From an uncultured delta proteobacterium (GTDB taxonomy: Bacteria; Myxococcota_A; Polyangia; Fen-1088): 64,000 nt of DNA. Position 1 is the first letter of the stretch. Each line of letters opens with the position of its first letter. A program made the position numbers and the translations under genes. The DNA is taken from NCBI GenBank assembly GCA_963737265.1, contig CAVTRY010000006.1, forward strand, positions 75,752-139,751, read 5' to 3'. Positions 38,983 to 47,406 of the stretch are shown here, piece after piece. Below the pieces are notes generated by a model, which worked only from the letters and a program-made list of their open reading frames with translations, searched no databases and was not told the origin of the DNA.

Positions 38983-40359
38983 CTACTTCGGGGCACCGAC
39001 TAGCTGGAACTCGGTGCGGCGGTTCTTGGCCTTGTCGGCGGCCGTCTTGTTCGACGTGATGGGCTTGTCCATACCGTACCCGACCGCGGTCAGGCGATCG
39101 GAGTTGATGCCCTTCCTGACAAAGTAGGCCTTCACCGACTCGGCCCGTTTCCGCGACAATTCCAGGTTGAACTCGGCCTTGCCCACGTTGTCGGTGTGCC
39201 CGCTGATTTCGAGCTTGATGTCCGGGTAGTCGTTGAGCACCTTCACGCCCTTGTCGAGCAACGAGTGCGAGTCCTTGGTGATCTCGGCCGACTTGGTCTT
39301 GAAGTTGATGCCTTGAATGACACCGGTGAACTTTTTGACGGCGGCGGGAACCTCGTCGGGGCAGCCGTCTTCGTCCTGGTAGCCGTTGAAGGTTTCAGGC
39401 TCGTTGGGGCACTTGTCGAGCTTGTCGGGAATGCCGTCGTTGTCGTTGTCCGGATCCGGGCAGCCGTCCTCATCCTGGAAGCCGTCGAAGTCTTCGGGCT
39501 CGTTGGGGCACTTGTCGAGCTTGTCGGGAATGCCGTCGCCGTCGTTGTCCGGATCCGGGCACCCGTCGTCGTCCTGGAAGCCGTCGAAATCCTCAGGCTC
39601 GCTCGGGCACTTGTCGGCATCACCCAGAATGCCGTCGTGATCTGGATCGAGATTCACCTTGGCAGCCGGCGGCGGCGCGGGCGGGGGTGGCTCGGGCGGC
39701 GGGCTTCCGAACAAACCGAGGTAGGCCGTCAGCAGGATTTCCCAGTCTGGACCATCGTAGTGGGTTTCGTTGCCGACCTTGGCGATGCCGGAAGCAATCG
39801 CGGGCGGCGCCATCACGCGTCCGTCGAGGCGCAGGCCGAACCTATCGGTGATGGGGAATTTGGCGCCCACGCCGATATGGAAGAAGTCGTCGGTGTCGCG
39901 CGGGACGATATCGGTGTTGCCGGGAAACGAGCTGAGCGCGCCCCAGCCGACGAGCACGAATGGCCGCACGTAACCCGTGTGAATGAAGGTGCCGATGATT
40001 TGGGCGCGGTAGCCGAGGATGATCTCGCGCGTGCTGTTGTCACGCGTGCGAGTCGGTGAAATCAGGGCTTCGCCTTCGGCCCCTATCCACTGGTTTAGGT
40101 TGTAGCTCAGGCGAAAACCGAAGGCGCCGCCGGTGTCGGGCGAAATCCCCGTGGGACTATCCGAGAAGCGGCCGAGGCCGCTCTTCTTGTTGTAGAAGTG
40201 AACGCCGCCGAAAACGCCGATTTCGAGCGGATTGACTTGTGCGCTGGGCGCCTCGCCCTCCGAAGCATGGGCGGCATTTGCGCCCGATAAACCTACGAGC
40301 GTAACCGCCAAGAGCGTGGTCAGGCGTCGTGCCACCACGAAACGTCGGGTTCTCCTCAT
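38983..40359 (-). CDS. OmpA-family protein: beta-barrel + thrombospondin type 3 repeats + peptidoglycan-binding domain
   Basis: RBS AAGGAG; barrel strands; DPDNDGDGIPDKLDKCP repeats; GHTDNVG, LSRKRAESV, NRRTEF. Confidence 0.92.
   Translation of the reverse strand: MRRTRRFVVARRLTTLLAVTLVGLSGANAAHASEGEAPSAQVNPLEIGVFGGVHFYNKKSGLGRFSDSPTGISPDTGGAFGFRLSYNLNQWIGAEGEALISPTRTRDNSTREIILGYRAQIIGTFIHTGYVRPFVLVGWGALSSFPGNTDIVPRDTDDFFHIGVGAKFPITDRFGLRLDGRVMAPPAIASGIAKVGNETHYDGPDWEILLTAYLGLFGSPPPEPPPPAPPPAAKVNLDPDHDGILGDADKCPSEPEDFDGFQDDDGCPDPDNDGDGIPDKLDKCPNEPEDFDGFQDEDGCPDPDNDNDGIPDKLDKCPNEPETFNGYQDEDGCPDEVPAAVKKFTGVIQGINFKTKSAEITKDSHSLLDKGVKVLNDYPDIKLEISGHTDNVGKAEFNLELSRKRAESVKAYFVRKGINSDRLTAVGYGMDKPITSNKTAADKAKNRRTEFQLVGAPK
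39357..39650. repeat. About 3 tandem 99-bp coding repeats (33-aa TSP3 Ca-binding units)
   Basis: Near-identical GGGCACTTGTCGAGCTTGTCGGGAATGCCGTCG... units with a 99-nt period. Confidence 0.85.
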
Positions 40360-40474
40360 GTGCTCTCCTTGTGGTTGTGGACAGGCAACACATAGCACAA
40401 TAAACGTCCTCGCGGACATGGAGCACGAATTCCATCAGGCGAAGGCCCGAGGCCGAGCGAGGGTTAATCCGAGG

Positions 40475-41008
40475 TCAACCGGTCGCCGTGGCGCCGGCCT
40501 GCTTCTGGCGCAGCGACGATCGAATCTCGGTGGCCACGACATCGCAAACCACGGTCTCGATTTTCTCGCGTGCGTCCGCGGGCAATCCTTCGAAGGCGAC
40601 GCCCATGAGAATGCTTCCCTGCTTGGATATGATCTTGACCACCTGGCAGCGCCCCACGATGACGGCGCCGCCACCAATTTTGAGGCGCATCCACACCACG
40701 GTCCCGGTCGGGGGCGACTCCGCAACCAGCGCGGAAAGCCCACTGGTGCTGATATCATGGGTGATGGAAGACACGGCGCCGGCGGGAAAGCCGAACTCGA
40801 TCTGGTAGGCCCGTGCGACGCGCAGAGCACCGCGCGCGGCAGCACCAGGTTCGATGGCCAGGCGCTGGGACATGAGCAGAACGGAGCACAGGTCATGCCT
40901 CGCTTGCATGTAGGGTTCGGTCGACTCCGCAGCGAGGGTTCCCTTCTTGAAGCCGTCGTGCCACTCGCAGAACTGTGCCAGCCATTCGTTGAGATTTGTC
41001 GCCACCAT
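40475..41008 (-). CDS. PilZ-domain protein (c-di-GMP receptor candidate)
   Basis: RxxxR (RGALR) and DxSxxG (DISTSG), MGVAF. Confidence 0.82.
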   Translation of the reverse strand: MVATNLNEWLAQFCEWHDGFKKGTLAAESTEPYMQARHDLCSVLLMSQRLAIEPGAAARGALRVARAYQIEFGFPAGAVSSITHDISTSGLSALVAESPPTGTVVWMRLKIGGGAVIVGRCQVVKIISKQGSILMGVAFEGLPADAREKIETVVCDVVATEIRSSLRQKQAGATATG

Positions 41009-41890: not shown

Positions 41891-42636
41891 CCCAAGCTTC
41901 GATCGCACTGGTCGTGCCCTGCTTCGACGAGGAAGCCCGTCTCGACCGCGCCGCATTTCTCGCCTTGGTCGATGATGCACCAGCCCTTGGTCTCGTGTTC
42001 GTCGACGACGGTTCGCGCGACCAGACTCTGGAAATCCTCCACGCGCTGGCGCGCGAGCGACCGGGACGCATCGAGGTCGTCGCCCTACCCAAGAATCAAG
42101 GCAAGGCCGAGGCGGTGCGACGCGGGCTTCTCCATGCGGTCGCAAGTCCGGTTGCCATCGCCGGCTTCATCGACGCCGATTCTTCGACCCCTCCGGCCGA
42201 GATCCTGCGCCTCACCGAGCTCGCCCGCAGCGGGCCGCATGACATCGTAATGGGCTCGCGCGTTCAGCTTCTCGGCCGGGCCATCAACCGCAAATCCGCG
42301 CGCCACTATCTCGGTCGTATTTTCGCCACCTGCGCCAGCCTCAGCCTCGGTCTGTCCGTCTACGACACCCAATGCGGCGCCAAGCTTTTCCGTCGCACCG
42401 ATGCGCTCGCGGCAGCGCTCGCCGAGCCATTTTCGTCGCGCTGGGCGTTCGACGTCGAGCTGCTGGCGCGCCTGATTCGCCCGCGTGCAGGCGTCCCCGC
42501 GATTCCCGTGGCCAGCATCTGGGAAGAGCCCTTGCTGACCTGGACCGACGTTCCCGGCTCCAAGATGCGTCTGGCAAGCGCACTGTGGACCGGGCTAGAG
42601 CTCGTGCGCATCGGCTGGAAGCTGCGTCGCCGCTAG
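41887..42636 (+). CDS. GT2 glycosyltransferase (polyprenyl-phosphate glycosyltransferase-like)
   Basis: VVPCFDE, VDDGSRD, NQGKAEAV, DAD, DTQCGAKLF, FDVELL; ATGA overlap. Confidence 0.9.
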   Translation: MTQASIALVVPCFDEEARLDRAAFLALVDDAPALGLVFVDDGSRDQTLEILHALARERPGRIEVVALPKNQGKAEAVRRGLLHAVASPVAIAGFIDADSSTPPAEILRLTELARSGPHDIVMGSRVQLLGRAINRKSARHYLGRIFATCASLSLGLSVYDTQCGAKLFRRTDALAAALAEPFSSRWAFDVELLARLIRPRAGVPAIPVASIWEEPLLTWTDVPGSKMRLASALWTGLELVRIGWKLRRR

Positions 42637-42802
42637 TTCCGCCCGTTAGATCGCGCCTGCTGTGCAGCGAATCCGAGGCGACGCCGCAAGAGCCGGGCGC
42701 CCGGCTGCGCAAGGTTGTCGACAGCGGCGACCAAGTGATGGAGCGCCGACGCAAGGCCGCAGTGCGCGCGGCGATCATCGGGTGCGCTCGATTGTGACGC
42801 TC

Positions 42803-43319
42803 ATGGACGACATCAATAGCGCGCGGCAATCCCTCTTTGGGACTCGATAAGAAGGAAGCGGTCAAAGCTGCCAACCACTACGAAGTGTGGAAGAGCGCGA
42901 TGGATCTATTGAAGGGTCAGTTCAGGCAGACAGCAGAGATGCTTACTGCATCGGCTGCAATGAGTAATGTCTATCTCAAGGACTTCGGTACGCTCGAATT
43001 GGAGAAATACCTCTCCCTGAAGAAGGAGGGATCTGCAAAGCGCACCTGGTTCTTCAGGCTCGACATTCGCAGCGGCGAACAGACTGCGCGATACCTCTGC
43101 TTCTTTGGCTTCGGAAGCCAACGAATGAGCACAGACCCGCAGATCGATGTTACTCTTCATGTCGCTCGTGAGGATCCTCCAGGTTCTTTCCAATATACGA
43201 GGTGCAACGATGCTCCCAGCTCGAAGGATCCCGACATTGTGGAAATTGGTTACAGCTCGAAAAGGGAGGCGTTTCTGGTCCGGGAATTGTGGAGCGCAAT
43301 TTCGGCGGCTAAGGGCTAA
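42803..43319 (+). pseudogene. Fragment of an unidentified, AT-richer gene
   Basis: Protein-like 160-aa frame (HYEVWKSAMDLLK...RTWFFRLDIRSG...YLCFFGF) lacking a proper start, with a frame break near 42837; visibly lower GC than flanks. Confidence 0.5.
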
Positions 43320-43367
43320 AGCCGTTGCAGCTCTCGTAGCTGAACGGCAAACCGTTCGCCGGGCCCT

Positions 43368-43461
43368 CAGTGAACGGTACGCGTGTCGAGCCTGGTTCTG
43401 AACTTCCCCCGGGCAGTTGGCGAAACGGCTCCCAGAACCGAGCGTTTGGCCGGGACTTCAC
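43368..43461 (-). pseudogene. RelE/ParE-like toxin remnant (frameshifted, truncated)
   Basis: MKSRPNARFWEPFRQLPG / EVQNQARHAYRSL across the C5 run at 43406-43410; GTG overlaps the antitoxin TGA. Confidence 0.65.
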
Positions 43462-43675
43462 ATCTTGTCGGGATCGAGGGTGCTCGTTCGACCGGCGGCC
43501 TCATCGGCCACGGCCCCGTCGGCCAATGCGTTCAGGACTTCTTGGAGCCGGCGAATCGGCGCGTCCATTCTCCTTCGGATGCGAGCTCGGACTGCAGCCA
43601 TCCCGCGATCCGATCCTGCTCGTCTGCAGGAAGGGACGATATCCTGGAGAAGACGCTTTCGAGAGCCCGAGTCAT
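43458..43675 (-). pseudogene. Type II antitoxin-like gene with 1-nt frameshift
   Basis: MTRALESVFSRISSLPADEQDRIAGWLQSELASEGEWTRRFAGS / QEVLNALADGAVADEAAGRTSTLDPDKM; break near 43544. Confidence 0.7.
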
Positions 43676-44034
43676 GCGCCAAGCATACTGCCCAGGGGGT
43701 TGCCCAACAACTGGGCGCTCGCAAGCAGCTCAAGCAAAAGGAACAGGGACTGATCGGGCTTCTGTGGGCTCACGAGATCCGTTCCGCGGTGAGGAAGATG
43801 CCACCCTCGCGCAACGTCCGTTGATCGCCGCCCGCGCGTGTGCAGGCGCCCTGCCCACCCCTCGGGCTTCGCCCGCAAGCAGGTCCCGAAGCTCCCGAAG
43901 GGGAGGTCGGATGGTGAGCGCCAACAGTCCACTCGAAATCCGCTCCTGAAATCCGGAAGACGGTCGACTTTTGCGCCAAGACGTCCGACAATGCAGCCTG
44001 CTTCGCTGTGATGGCTTTCACGAAAGAGACCACG

Positions 44035-44145
44035 ATGAAAAAGACGGAAAAGACCGCCAACCCCGCCCCCTTCGGACTCGTGGGTTTCGGGATGACGACC
44101 GTTCTGCTCAACATCCACAACGCGGGCTTTTTCCGAGCACGGTGA
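44035..44145 (+). pseudogene. satP: N-terminal stub (36 codons) of GPR1/FUN34/YaaH acetate transporter
   Basis: [26 protein letters not shown] then stop; family signature NPAPLGL. Confidence 0.8.
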
Positions 44146-44170
44146 GTGGTTGCCCGGAGCGGAATCCATC

Positions 44171-44512
44171 ATGGCAATCAGAAAGCGGACCAGGTCGCTC
44201 GCTCTCGTTCTGCTGGGCGCGCTCGCTTTCGCCTCTGCGTCGGTGTTGGCCGTGCCGGCTGAGGTGCGCGTTCCCATCGTCAAGGAGCATGGCAGGGCCG
44301 ATCCGCCCAGCCCCGGTGTTTTTTCGCACTGGCAACACGATCAATACATTTGTGTCACCTGTCACCCGGCGCTGTTTCCCCGCGCACGCGTGGGATTCAC
44401 CCACGATCAGATGGACGAGGGTAGGTTCTGCGGCGCTTGTCACGACGGCCGGACGGCTCCCCCGACCAGTGGCGCGCGCGCAACCTGCAAATCCTCGTGT
44501 CACGCTCAATGA
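44171..44512 (+). CDS. Periplasmic c7-type triheme cytochrome c
   Basis: Signal peptide; FSHWQH, CVTCH, CGACH, CKSSCH (CX3CH). Confidence 0.85.
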   Translation: MAIRKRTRSLALVLLGALAFASASVLAVPAEVRVPIVKEHGRADPPSPGVFSHWQHDQYICVTCHPALFPRARVGFTHDQMDEGRFCGACHDGRTAPPTSGARATCKSSCHAQ

Positions 44513-45717
44513 GGAAAGTCGTCAGTCGCATGCTTGCCATCTTTGTCGTGACCGCGGTCGTGACCGTGGCCGCGACGTCGCCCTTGGCCGCGTCCGAAGA
44601 GGGCGGCACCGAAGTCGGTCCGGCGGAAGGTCAGGCCGCCAGCCCGACCGAGCCGACACCCGCGCCGGCCAAGCCGCCGGCGAAGGATGATGCCGAGGAG
44701 CATGGGGGCCAGGCGTTGGCACTGCCAGGCGGCGTCCGCCTCGGCGGCATGTTCGACGCCGCCTACGAGCGCGCGGGTAGATCGGCCGACTTCGGCAGCG
44801 GGCAGAACGAGTTCCACAGCTATCACCATTTCTTGTTTCTATCCCGCCAGGGCGATGATGTGCCCGTGGGGTTCAACGCAGAAGTGCTGGGCCTTTACTT
44901 CTACGAACTCACTGCGCGCCTTTCGGACAAGGGATCGCCCGTGCGCGTGTCCGCCCACGCGGGAAAGATCCTGGTGCCCTTCGGGCCGGATCCGCTGTTT
45001 CACAAAAACTACGGCGGGCTAAGCGGCGTCGACCAGAGGACGCTGCCCGTGGTCTGGTCGGCCATCGGCGGTGGCGTCCGCTTCGCCCTGGTGTCGCGGG
45101 GGCTGTCCGCCTCCGACGAGGTTTACAGCGTGCAAGGGTTCGACCTCCCAGCGCGCGACCAGACGCTCGACATGCAACGCGACCTGGTTGCTTACGACGG
45201 TGCGCGCGTGGCGCTGGGCAACCGGCTGGCGCTCTCGAGCGGTCCCTTCACGCTGTGGTACTCGTTCTATTGGAACCCGATGCGTTTTGGCCGCCAGCTC
45301 ATCATGCAGGCCGTGGATATGACGGTGTGGCGGCCCGACTGGCCGCTTCTGAACCATCTGGCATTGGGCGTTGGCGCCGTACGCGCGTTCGTTTCTGCCG
45401 ACGAGAGCTACGGCCGGCCGAACGCCGTGCCGGATGCTGGTTCGTATTTCCACTTCGCCGACTACGTCTGGTTGCGTGCCTATCTGGGCCAATGGATCTA
45501 CCTGCAGGCGCGCAGTGGTCTGGCGACCTTCGACAACCGGGCCGGGCTCTTTTACGACGCAAGCCGGGCCACTGCGGACGATGGCTCGCACCACAACGTG
45601 GCGTTGGTGGTCGAATACGCGGGCGCGCAAGCCAGTCTGGCCTATTTCTGGAACTTCGAGAAAGTCGACGAACGACCGGACGATCTTCTGCGGCTGACGG
45701 TGACCTATGCGTTCTAG
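44509..45717 (+). CDS. Outer-membrane beta-barrel (porin-like) protein
   Basis: Signal peptide, Pro-rich linker, amphipathic strands, GKILVPFG, C-terminal LTVTYAF; ATGA overlap with the cytochrome. Confidence 0.75.
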   Translation: MRKVVSRMLAIFVVTAVVTVAATSPLAASEEGGTEVGPAEGQAASPTEPTPAPAKPPAKDDAEEHGGQALALPGGVRLGGMFDAAYERAGRSADFGSGQNEFHSYHHFLFLSRQGDDVPVGFNAEVLGLYFYELTARLSDKGSPVRVSAHAGKILVPFGPDPLFHKNYGGLSGVDQRTLPVVWSAIGGGVRFALVSRGLSASDEVYSVQGFDLPARDQTLDMQRDLVAYDGARVALGNRLALSSGPFTLWYSFYWNPMRFGRQLIMQAVDMTVWRPDWPLLNHLALGVGAVRAFVSADESYGRPNAVPDAGSYFHFADYVWLRAYLGQWIYLQARSGLATFDNRAGLFYDASRATADDGSHHNVALVVEYAGAQASLAYFWNFEKVDERPDDLLRLTVTYAF

Positions 45718-46093
45718 GTTGCTCTTGGCATCAGCGGTCGCCGCCTTGGTCAGCTGCGCCGATTTTCGGCGCGGGCCCGCGCCTCGCGACGGGAGCGCGG
45801 ATGGCTCCGAGGTCGTGGATGTCGCGTTCGAAGGGTCGGTGTATCCCATTCTCGACCTCGAGTGCGTCGAGTGCCATTCGGCCAGCGGCCAAGCCTCCAA
45901 CACCAACTTCGTGCTCACCGGCAACGCCCGCCTCGATCGCGCCATGGTCGTGGCCCTGGTGACGCCAGGCAATCCCAGCGAGAGTAGGTTGCTGGTTCAG
46001 GCCACCAGCGACAGTCATGGTGGCGGGCAACGGTTTGCCACGGACAGTTCGGAGTACCAGACTATCTCCGCTTGGATACTCGGTCTTCCGTGA
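45707..46093 (+). CDS. Monoheme cytochrome c lipoprotein
   Basis: LVSC lipobox; VYPILDLECVECH, PGNPSESRLL, SHGGG, ISAWI; overlaps the porin stop by 11 nt. Confidence 0.78.
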   Translation: MRSRLLLASAVAALVSCADFRRGPAPRDGSADGSEVVDVAFEGSVYPILDLECVECHSASGQASNTNFVLTGNARLDRAMVVALVTPGNPSESRLLVQATSDSHGGGQRFATDSSEYQTISAWILGLP

Positions 46094-46206
46094 ACCTGGG
46101 CGGATGCGCGGCGGCCGCATCGCCTCGCCCCGTCCCATCGGCTGGAAACTGCGTCGCCGCTAGCTCCTAGTCGCCGGGCGAGATTCTGATATGGTTGGAC
46201 GTTCCA

Positions 46207-47406
46207 ATGTCCTTGTCCGAAGAACTACTCGCAACGGGGCGAAGGCTCCTCATCAACAACTACGGCCGCGCGCCCATCGTCATGTCGCGCGGCGAAGGCT
46301 GCGAGCTGTGGGATGTCGACGGCCGTCGCTACCTCGACATGACTGCGGGCATCGCCGTGTGCGTGCTCGGCCACGGCCACGCCGGGCTGGCGCAGGCCAT
46401 CGCCACCCAGGCTGCCCGTTTGCACCACACCTCGAACCTGTACTTCATCGAAGAACAGATCCGGCTCGCCGAAGCGCTCAGCCGCCGCGCCTTTGCCGGC
46501 AAGTTCTTCTTTTGCAACTCGGGCACCGAGGCCAACGAAGCCGCCCTCAAGCTCGCCCGGCGCTACCAGGCGGTGGTGCGGGGCAGGCCCAATCGCGTGG
46601 AGCTCATCGCCTTCGAAAATAGTTTTCACGGCCGCACCATGGGTGCGCTGTCGGTGACCGGCCAAGCCAAGTACAGGCAAGGCTTCGGACCTTTGCTGGC
46701 CGACGTTCGCTTCATCCCGTTCGGCGACGCCGAAGCCGCCCGCGCGGCCATCAACGACCGCACCTGCGCGGTCATCGCCGAGCCCATCCAAGCCGAAGGT
46801 GGCATCAACCTGCCGCCGCCGGGATATTTGCAGGAATTGCGCCGCGTGTGCAGCGAACGAGGCGCCGTCTTGATCTTCGACGAGATCCAGACCGGCGTCG
46901 GGCGCGCGGGAACCTTCTACGCGTTCGAACGGGAGGCCATGGTTCCGGACATCGTAACCTTGGCCAAGGGTCTGGCGGGCGGCGTGCCCATGGGCGCGAT
47001 GCTGGCAAGCGACGAGGTCGAGCGCGCCTTCGAGCCGGGAACGCACGCGTCCACCTTTGGCGGCAATCCTCTGGCGTCGGCTGCCGCGCTTTACATCCAG
47101 CAAACCATCGACGAGCAGAATCTGCTCGGTCGCTGCCAAGACGCCGGTGCCTATCTCGGATCTGCCCTTTCCCGCATGGCGGAACGGCGCAGGCCGAAGA
47201 CACGCAGCGCGCGCGGGCGCGGGCTTTTGCAGGGGCTCGTGCTCGACGGCGACGCGGGCGCAGTGGTGGTCAAGGCGCGCGAGCGGGGGCTGCTGCTGTC
47301 CGTGGCGGGCGGTTCGGTCGTGCGTTTCGCGCCGCCGCTGGTGGTGGGCAAGGACGAGATCGACGAAGCCGTTGCCATCCTGGACGCGGTGCTGGCCGAC
47401 AGCTGA
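46207..47406 (+). CDS. argD: Acetylornithine aminotransferase
   Basis: YLDMTAGIAV, NSGTEANE, SFHGRT, FDEIQTG, LAKGLAGG, HASTFGGNPL; adjacent to argF. Confidence 0.92.
   Translation: MSLSEELLATGRRLLINNYGRAPIVMSRGEGCELWDVDGRRYLDMTAGIAVCVLGHGHAGLAQAIATQAARLHHTSNLYFIEEQIRLAEALSRRAFAGKFFFCNSGTEANEAALKLARRYQAVVRGRPNRVELIAFENSFHGRTMGALSVTGQAKYRQGFGPLLADVRFIPFGDAEAARAAINDRTCAVIAEPIQAEGGINLPPPGYLQELRRVCSERGAVLIFDEIQTGVGRAGTFYAFEREAMVPDIVTLAKGLAGGVPMGAMLASDEVERAFEPGTHASTFGGNPLASAAALYIQQTIDEQNLLGRCQDAGAYLGSALSRMAERRRPKTRSARGRGLLQGLVLDGDAGAVVVKARERGLLLSVAGGSVVRFAPPLVVGKDEIDEAVAILDAVLADS

Follow-up and report, generated by a model that had tools for sequence, protein, structure and literature searches.

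Known outer-membrane conduits are either 20- to 26-strand sheaths around many-heme cytochromes, the MtrB barrel being 26-strand, or the single-heme Cyc2 fusion. Those of Geobacter have 5- to 12-heme periplasmic and surface cytochromes and larger porins, and the Geobacter c7 genes lie outside the conduit operons. OmcA and MtrC are surface reductases in Shewanella, and FoxE, a diheme cytochrome of the periplasm, oxidises Fe(II). In the part of a 2026 review that bears on such barrels (PMC13741234), those of PioB and MtoB are 26-strand and Cyc2 is a 16-strand barrel with OprO (4RJX) as its best template; an OprO/OprP template is also the best for Cyt572, and in both proteins, which belong to iron oxidisers, a monoheme cytochrome is fused to a porin. 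There are several further porin:cytochrome conduits, and none in the relevant part of PMC10553843 has the composition of the gene trio considered here. This trio, encoding a c7-type triheme cytochrome, a 16-strand outer-membrane barrel and a monoheme lipoprotein, is in a 64,000-nucleotide (nt) stretch of DNA, below called the window, from an uncultured delta proteobacterium (genome G000, contig C6, positions 75752-139751; the genome is of 6.55 Mb in 25 contigs, with a completeness of 99.5% and a contamination of 7.6%). With a probability of about one half, the trio is the conserved core of an apparently undescribed, mainly myxobacterial, porin-cytochrome electron-transfer system. An original prediction, made from the letters of the window, had taken the system to be possibly undescribed, and in the literature searched, with subscription journals and supplements outside its scope, no paper describing the cluster was found. 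The main text of an MtrCAB survey (PMC8805035) has no mention of Deltaproteobacteria, Anaeromyxobacter or any term beginning with Myxococc. (In the labels used below, G stands for genomes of the comparison sets, C for contigs, L for surveyed loci and P for distant proteins of the barrel family.)

All three genes are on the forward strand. The stop codon of the c7 gene (44171-44512) and the ATG of the barrel gene (44509-45717) share an ATGA, and the lipoprotein gene (45707-46093) starts inside the end of the barrel gene with an overlap of 11 nts (45707-45717). The three genes are translationally coupled and co-inherited. At its longest, with a TTG start at 44437, the barrel open reading frame (ORF) encodes 426 aa.

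The c7 product (113 aa, ATG to TGA) starts with a Sec-type signal, MAIRKRTRS and a hydrophobic run leading to a VLA-VP junction. Its heme motifs are CVTCH (44351-44365), CGACH (44429-44443) and CKSSCH (44486-44503), the third of which is of the CX3CH form; heme attachment at such motifs occurs in other cytochromes. The protein exceeds the curated cut-offs of both PF14522 (40.8 bits, cut-off 24.8) and TIGR04257 (46.3 bits, cut-off 40). Across 27 homologues the motif residues C61, C64, H65, C87, C90, H91, C106, C110 and H111 are invariant, and so are three extra histidines, H53, H56 and H78, as many as three bis-His hemes call for, the arrangement found in c7 cytochromes. Among solved structures, c7-type domains from a Geobacter dodecaheme (3OV0, E 6e-50; 1RWJ, E 8e-16) come closest, along with PpcA, whose hemes are bis-His.

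The lipoprotein (128 aa, ATG start) has the lipobox LVS-C with its Cys17 at 45755-45757, after which a conserved segment, ADF.RG, leads over a disordered linker to a helical heme domain bearing one motif, CVECH (45863-45877). Invariant among 28 homologues are C17, R22, G23, C53, C56, H57, S93, H104 and W123; no Met is invariant in that alignment, and His104 (46016-46018) is, from this pattern of conservation, the likely distal heme ligand. The match to PSCyt1 (PF07635, 'Planctomycete cytochrome C'), over profile positions 1-50 of 59, is just below the cut-off (21.8 bits, cut-off 22, E 3e-4), and the matches to sequences in the PDB are weak: the heme domain of the hydrazine synthase alpha subunit (E 0.0087) and FoxE (E 0.014), in the alignment with which His104 is paired with a Met. 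In one relative (L046:7493-7984, minus strand, genome G324) the lipoprotein has CX4CH (C-TSSG-CH) in place of CXXCH in its heme domain, a second widened heme-attachment motif in the family.

The middle protein (402 aa) has a signal peptide, a Pro/Ala-rich disordered stretch at about residues 29-68, histidine clusters HSYHH (residues 103-107) and SHHN (residues 360-363), and a C-terminal ...TYAF. It has no match in Pfam at E <= 0.1, Porin_O_P (PF07396), Porin_4 and the MtrB/PioB family PF11854 included, or to an NCBIfam family, and its profile finds no sequence in the PDB at E <= 1. The AlphaFold2 model, built with 55 homologues, is of a barrel (mean pLDDT 70.6, pTM 0.69) in which, as in the better-resolved model of a relative, DSSP counts 16 strands. 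In an exhaustive structural comparison (VIA-align) the best match is OprP (2O4V; Z 21.5, rmsd 3.3 over 281 residues), with PorB at Z 20.1 and Omp32 at Z 19.3, while MtrB (6R2Q_B) reaches only Z 10.4 with an rmsd of 9.9. PorB and Omp32 are also the best Foldseek matches, and by language-model features the nearest named protein-atlas clusters are Porin_O_P families. The likeness to Porin_O_P and general porins is thus one of modelled fold and language-model features only. The family is small, with 159 matches at E <= 1e-3 in a profile search of 1.84 billion representatives, and 83 of the 402 columns are invariant across 55 sequences.

The most conserved stretch of the barrel, PFGPDPLFHKNYGG...DQR.LP, is the loop between strands 5 and 6 (residues 157-181, 44977-45051). 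P157, F158, G159, D161, P162, F164, H165, Y168, G169 and G170 are invariant in the 55 sequences; the motif is invariant in the fused relatives described below too (P494...G507) and is retained in the distant homologues P0237 and P0196. By the strand order that DSSP gives for the two models, the loop occupies the position of the constriction loop L3 of classical porins, and it would fold inward. Its His165, and His106 in strand 2, are retained even in distant homologues. What the original prediction had read in the window is borne out: three overlapping genes, found at the coordinates above, for a Sec-exported triheme cytochrome whose third motif is CX3CH, a barrel of about 400 aa that ends in Phe and carries the His motifs HSYHH and HHN, and a lipid-anchored CXXCH protein. 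Its suggestion that the c7 might insert into the barrel has become doubtful, the barrel being OprP/PorB-like rather than an MtrB-like sheath: with a 16-strand porin fold and a conserved L3-like loop, insertion of a whole c7 domain is geometrically doubtful.

For a survey of the trio one genome per species was scanned, and in the 59 loci found genes were typed with hidden Markov models from the analysis' own alignments and with phmmer. A barrel homologue is present in 8 of 12 other genomes of the genus, 22 of 36 genomes of the family and 12 of 400 other genomes of a sample of the phylum; there is none in the other sampled families of the same class. The c7 is present in 54 of the 59 loci, the lipoprotein in 55 and both in 51. 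Four of the five loci lacking a c7 begin less than 250 nts from a contig end, and of the four lacking a lipoprotein one (L072) ends just past the barrel, one (L105) is broken and two (L107 and L114) are from other phyla. With both partners beside the barrel in 51 loci, and the order the same in relatives, the triplet is strongly conserved across genomes, and the recurrence of the same trio in the same order is more than chance. A NapC-like gene is found in 32 of the loci, a protein with at least 9 CXXCH motifs in 30, a class-I monoheme cytochrome c in 5, a barrel ORF of at least 560 aa in 27 and a c7 with a CX3CH third motif in 18. (Frameshifts or truncated ORFs gave locus-typing artefacts at L109, L110, L113, L116 and L117, with L091, L095 and L102 typed 'unfused'.)

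Three architectures can be told apart. The window has type A, of which there are 18 loci: a CX3CH c7, a barrel of about 400 aa and the lipoprotein, with nothing else cytochrome-like within 7 kb. Type A barrels are 54-92% identical, are encoded by a single ORF in 17 of the 18 loci, and come, according to the record titles, from metagenome-assembled genomes from fen, permafrost and soil. The CX3CH motif is present in all 18 and in none of the remaining loci; c7 relatives outside the clade of the window have CXXCH at this site. In type B the barrel is unfused and is accompanied by NapC, a class-I cytochrome c and a decaheme. In type C, NapC and c7 come first, then a barrel of 700-850 aa that has two CXXCH domains at its N-terminus, and then the lipoprotein and the decaheme; its carriers include the cultured Corallococcus exercitus, C. 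interemptor, C. carmarthensis, C. coralloides and C. terminator as well as Myxococcus dinghuensis and Myxococcus sp. 1LA.

The N-terminus of the type C barrel consists of two copies of the lipoprotein heme domain (hhalign 99.8%, E 8e-28; tblastn 41% and 33%). In a distant member, P0237 (413 aa), a signal peptide is followed by one lipoprotein-like heme domain and then the barrel (hhalign 96.2%, E 2.7e-9). Such heme-domain/barrel gene fusions are 'Rosetta-stone' evidence, independent of complex prediction, that monoheme domain and barrel act together. An AlphaFold2 model of a fused relative has heme domains with a pLDDT of about 90, disordered linkers and a pTM of 0.48, and Foldseek with this model returns porins only, the top one being OprO (4RJX).

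The partners in the fuller clusters are informative. NapC-like proteins, membrane tetrahemes of the NapC/NirT type, score above the PF03264 cut-off (50.1 and 34.1 bits). Of 15 decahemes scanned with the OmcA/MtrC model TIGR03507, four pass the cut-off of 209 with 340-454 bits; those of the three type B clusters nearest to the window (L045/L077, L080 and L081) are OmcA/MtrC decahemes with 424-454 bits. The remaining 11 are decaheme lipoproteins of another kind, in which there are c7-like and Big_2 domains. In its parts the full cluster corresponds to an extracellular electron-transfer pathway, having a NapC of the quinol dehydrogenase type, a periplasmic c7, a barrel to which a heme domain is attached or fused, and a decaheme lipoprotein. 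The presence of the five-gene cluster in cultured Corallococcus and Myxococcus (L084, L091-L093, L095, L096, L100, L111 and L115) is surprising for aerobic predatory myxobacteria, and neither genus is known for extracellular respiration.

A maximum-likelihood tree of the barrel domain was made with 55 rows (L061, L105, L110, L113 and L116, whose barrels are split in several ORFs, were excluded) and drawn with a midpoint root for display only. Type A is one clade, with support of 100/100, and is sister (100/99) to L077 plus L080, both of which have NapC, a class-I cytochrome c and OmcA/MtrC; the sequences from other phyla and additional lineages of type B branch below. With the tree rooted in this way, the minimal form in the window would most simply be a derived reduction of a larger cluster, and the CX3CH motif would be a shared derived character of type A. 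The three genes are a real, conserved unit, and the description of the module as unusually small needs amending in that its minimal form appears to be such a reduction. Distant barrel homologues with 31-35% identity are found outside the Myxococcota, in L107 (Candidatus Calescibacterium), L108 and L114 (Candidatus Eisenbacteria). In L107 and L108 the c7 gene still precedes that of the barrel, which suggests either that c7 and barrel are the most ancient unit or that the two were transferred.

Nine proteins encoded by genes flanking the trio in the window (PilZ, methyltransferase, GT2, a hypothetical protein, the yaaH fragment, argD, argF, OmpA-like and a J-domain-like ORF) were searched for with tblastn in 25 related loci (L059-L083), and none is beside the trio in any of them. 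Genomic context gives no functional hint. The module seems to have been relocated in the clade of the window, and a 36-codon remnant of a GPR1/FUN34/YaaH gene (44035-44145, forward strand), directly 5′ of the c7 gene and outside the module, marks a rearrangement at its 5′ edge. The remnant matches PF01184 positions 8-41 with 23.7 bits (below the cut-off of 25; E 1.3e-4) at G000:C6:119777-119878, equivalent to 44026-44127 in the window, and a full-length gene of the YaaH family (an acetate transporter family) is at G000:C13:97519-98049. Two relatives have a split barrel gene: in L061 (G408:C8, same genus) it is in two ORFs of 133 and 285 aa, and in G434:C2:30196-31303 (same family) the barrel matches as five fragments in different frames. 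In both the modules are probably pseudogenes.

Association of the three proteins was addressed by a complex prediction with barrel residues 66-402, lipoprotein residues 17-128, c7 residues 28-113 as scored partner, and four hemes. The c7 score was 0.54 (runs 0.77, 0.54 and 0.53), the best of three controls scored 0.00, and the outcome was rated 'weak support'. At least 75% of contacts are common to the runs, partner pLDDT is at least 82, and the score fell to 0.00 once the barrel was replaced and the lipoprotein kept. In calibration, 116 of 157 solved complexes passed the mark, as did 2 of 215 mismatched pairs; passing scores of 0.60 or less include just 18 of the 157 solved complexes, but both of the passing mismatches. 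As the analysis' own alignments and heme ligands were used, this calibration holds only roughly. That the proteins form a complex, as the original prediction requires, gains weak support from the score, which comes without an interface.

Elsewhere in G000 there are two stand-alone OmcA/MtrC decaheme lipoproteins, C13:128269-131310 (401 bits with TIGR03507; L050) and C11:15973-19011 (369 bits; L051). No barrel or periplasmic multiheme gene is adjacent to either; one of them shares about 25% identity with a decaheme that is linked to the cluster in a relative. No OmcA/MtrC decaheme (TIGR03507) is in the window locus, and G000 as a whole has no match to MtrB/PioB (PF11854) and none above cut-off to MtrA/DmsE (TIGR03508). 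With two unlinked decahemes in the genome, 'only four hemes', as was noted at the outset, is true of the locus and does not necessarily describe the pathway. A pentaheme of the NapC/NirT family is on C22 (39.5 bits). Within the genus, trio and OmcA/MtrC are found together in 8 genomes including G000, neither is in G409, and G411 has fragments only. G000 also has, at C14:132887-137183 on the minus strand, a 9-heme and an 11-heme cytochrome about 1.9 kb apart and both with hydrophobic tails. This pair was considered as a Pcc-type conduit and rejected on account of those tails and of the lack of a barrel-like ORF between the two genes; it may be an inner-membrane cytochrome complex.

How the trio could work follows from these likenesses. 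The barrel resembles the OprO/OprP template reported for Cyc2, and on that ground barrel and monoheme domain can be read as a split Cyc2-like unit with the c7 as partner. The two would cooperate as a split Cyc2-type cytochrome-porin, the c7 would serve as a PpcA-like periplasmic relay, and electrons would leave the quinol pool by way of the c7, reach the heme associated with the barrel, and end either on surface cytochromes or on an acceptor, for example Fe(III) or Mn(IV), that is external or accessible through the pore. An outward, reductive flow would be favoured by ligand sets that are bis-His throughout (the three spare histidines of the c7, His104 of the lipoprotein) and by the NapC and OmcA/MtrC partners. 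In the clade of the window the NapC, class-I cytochrome c and decaheme once linked to the module would have been lost, its third motif would have become CX3CH and the module would have moved, and it may now serve the two unlinked OmcA/MtrC decahemes of G000, which are without MtrAB.

Several points weigh against an electron-transfer role. In its model the barrel folds like an ordinary 16-strand diffusion porin, its L3-like loop probably narrows the modelled lumen, the barrel of the window has no heme motif, and four hemes, none placed inside the barrel, may not bridge the outer membrane. The complex output, having no interface, is silent on entry of the c7 into the barrel, and the model of the fused relative gives no usable placement of its heme domains with respect to the barrel. 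Neither NapC nor a decaheme is within 7 kb of the trio in any of the 18 type A loci. Of the decahemes that go with fused barrels, most (11 of the 15 scanned) are outside the OmcA/MtrC family. NapC of the cluster type has no close homologue in G000 (best tblastn 28% identity, E 5.6e-5), and the class-I cytochrome c of the clusters has none there at E <= 1e-3. Co-occurrence in the genus is imperfect, G406 having the trio with no decaheme above cut-off, and G407 and G412 a decaheme with no trio, though as these genomes are related and incomplete, co-occurrence is weak evidence either way. The trans-outer-membrane transfer originally inferred draws support from the linkage to NapC/NirT and OmcA/MtrC in relatives, and loses the MtrB-like conduit geometry. 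A bolder form of the same proposal is quite unlikely: that the barrel is itself redox-active, with His106 and His165 holding a non-covalent heme or a metal ion inside the porin. Barrel, PSCyt1-like heme domain and c7 would then together be the smallest trans-outer-membrane wire known, able to feed OmcA/MtrC without MtrAB, and a reductive counterpart of Cyc2 in split form.

The porin character of the barrel would also suit a different role, the main alternative, possible though somewhat unlikely, in which a specific OprP/OprO-like diffusion channel lets in a small soluble compound that is redox-active, for example chelated Fe(III), Fe(II), Mn or an oxyanion. Next to the pore, at the inner leaflet of the outer membrane, the lipoprotein would work with the c7 to reduce or oxidise this compound in the periplasm, and no electrons would cross via protein. 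All the best structural matches, OprP, PorB and Omp32, are solute porins and the atlas neighbours are Porin_O_P; the conserved loop is at the L3 position, the invariant His106 and His165 suit a metal-selective eyelet, the lipoprotein has its weak match to FoxE, and the minimal loci have no surface decaheme. However, fusion to an N-terminal heme domain is unusual for a mere channel and mirrors Cyc2, and in 30 of the 59 loci decaheme lipoproteins, OmcA/MtrC members among them, are linked. The barrel, with its 83 invariant columns, is also much more conserved than typical diffusion porins, and the dependence of the c7 score on the barrel lends weak support to contact between the two.

The layout of a monoheme domain and a 16-strand OprO-like barrel is equally that of Cyc2, and the direction of flow could be inward, from an external or pore-bound metal to the monoheme and then the c7, in an electron-uptake or Fe(II)/Mn(II)-oxidising module akin to Cyc2 or FoxE. 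The match of the lipoprotein to FoxE is again relevant, His104 being opposite a FoxE Met, as is the lack of an adjacent terminal-reductase decaheme in the minimal clade. Yet all-His heme ligation gives low potentials, and the invariant ligands, all His, are therefore suited to reduction over Fe(II) oxidation; NapC/NirT and OmcA/MtrC, which accompany the trio in full clusters, typically go with outward transfer, even if such transfer is reversible in principle. Inward flow is very unlikely. That the trio is a decaying or functionless remnant of a cluster, or has a non-respiratory role in heme/iron acquisition or periplasmic redox stress, is hardly to be believed, even with the loss of linked partners, the relocation, the 25 related loci in which no neighbouring gene from the window adjoins the trio, the truncated gene at the 5′ edge and the broken barrel genes of G408 and G434. 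The three reading frames in the window are intact and coupled, the type A barrel is one ORF in all loci but one, and heme motifs and axial histidines are invariant across the clade. Barrel identities of 54-92% and the many invariant residues speak for purifying selection, and a CX3CH fixed in every minimal locus is not a random lesion.

As to other features, a scan of 42500-46500 with Rfam gave no match at E <= 0.1, a sigma-70 promoter scan of 43200-46400 gave 0 sites, and the three terminator-like sites around the trio, with 2.8 expected, are uninformative. When public sequencing runs were searched with sampled words, the best DNA run shared 0.41 of them and the remaining runs 0.17 or less, and no RNA run was among the matches. 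On the minus strand at 38983-40419 is a gene for an OmpA-family protein that has a small barrel domain (PF13505) at its N-terminus, contains thrombospondin type 3 repeats (PF02412) and has an OmpA domain at its C-terminus; a gene for a PilZ-domain protein (40475-41008, minus strand) adjoins it.

If the electron-transfer reading is right, a 16-strand porin with a small c7 and a one-heme lipoprotein would be a third way of wiring the outer membrane. The split, singly fused and doubly fused forms constitute a natural series for studying how cytochrome-porins work. The module is common in Myxococcota genomes from peat, fen and soil, where iron cycling affects carbon turnover, and its occurrence in cultured, genetically approachable myxobacteria makes the hypothesis directly testable. 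The significance comes mostly from the whole family and its cultured carriers, and less from the reduced copy in the window.

With Cyc2 and Cyt572 the family shares a monoheme domain and a 16-strand OprO/OprP-type barrel, and relatives of the trio in the window are true N-terminal fusions. In the window, however, the cytochrome is encoded by a separate lipoprotein gene and is not fused to the barrel, and the family's heme domain is, by a borderline score, PSCyt1-like, with probable His/His ligands. A c7 gene precedes that of the barrel (c7 being present in 54 of the 59 loci), and the NapC and decaheme of full clusters point to reduction, not Fe(II) oxidation. The likeness to Cyc2 is one of layout and fold; no Cyc2 profile surfaced in the general Pfam and NCBIfam scans.

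The logic of a periplasmic multiheme, an outer-membrane barrel and a lipoprotein cytochrome is that of MtrCAB, PioAB and MtoAB, and the clusters of the nearest relatives have an OmcA/MtrC decaheme and a CymA-like NapC/NirT protein. In contrast, the barrel of the window does not belong to the MtrB/PioB family, having 16 strands rather than 26, and a 3-heme c7 takes the place of the MtrA/DmsE decaheme before it. The Geobacter Pcc, Ext and Oet conduits with PpcA also involve a c7-type triheme and clusters of a porin with lipoprotein cytochromes; here, unlike there, the c7 gene is translationally coupled to that of the barrel. OprP/OprO, PorB and Omp32 have the same 16-strand fold (Z 19-21.5, rmsd 3.3-3.5 over about 280 residues) and a long loop at the L3 position, but share no sequence family with the barrel of the window, whose own family is linked or fused to cytochromes.

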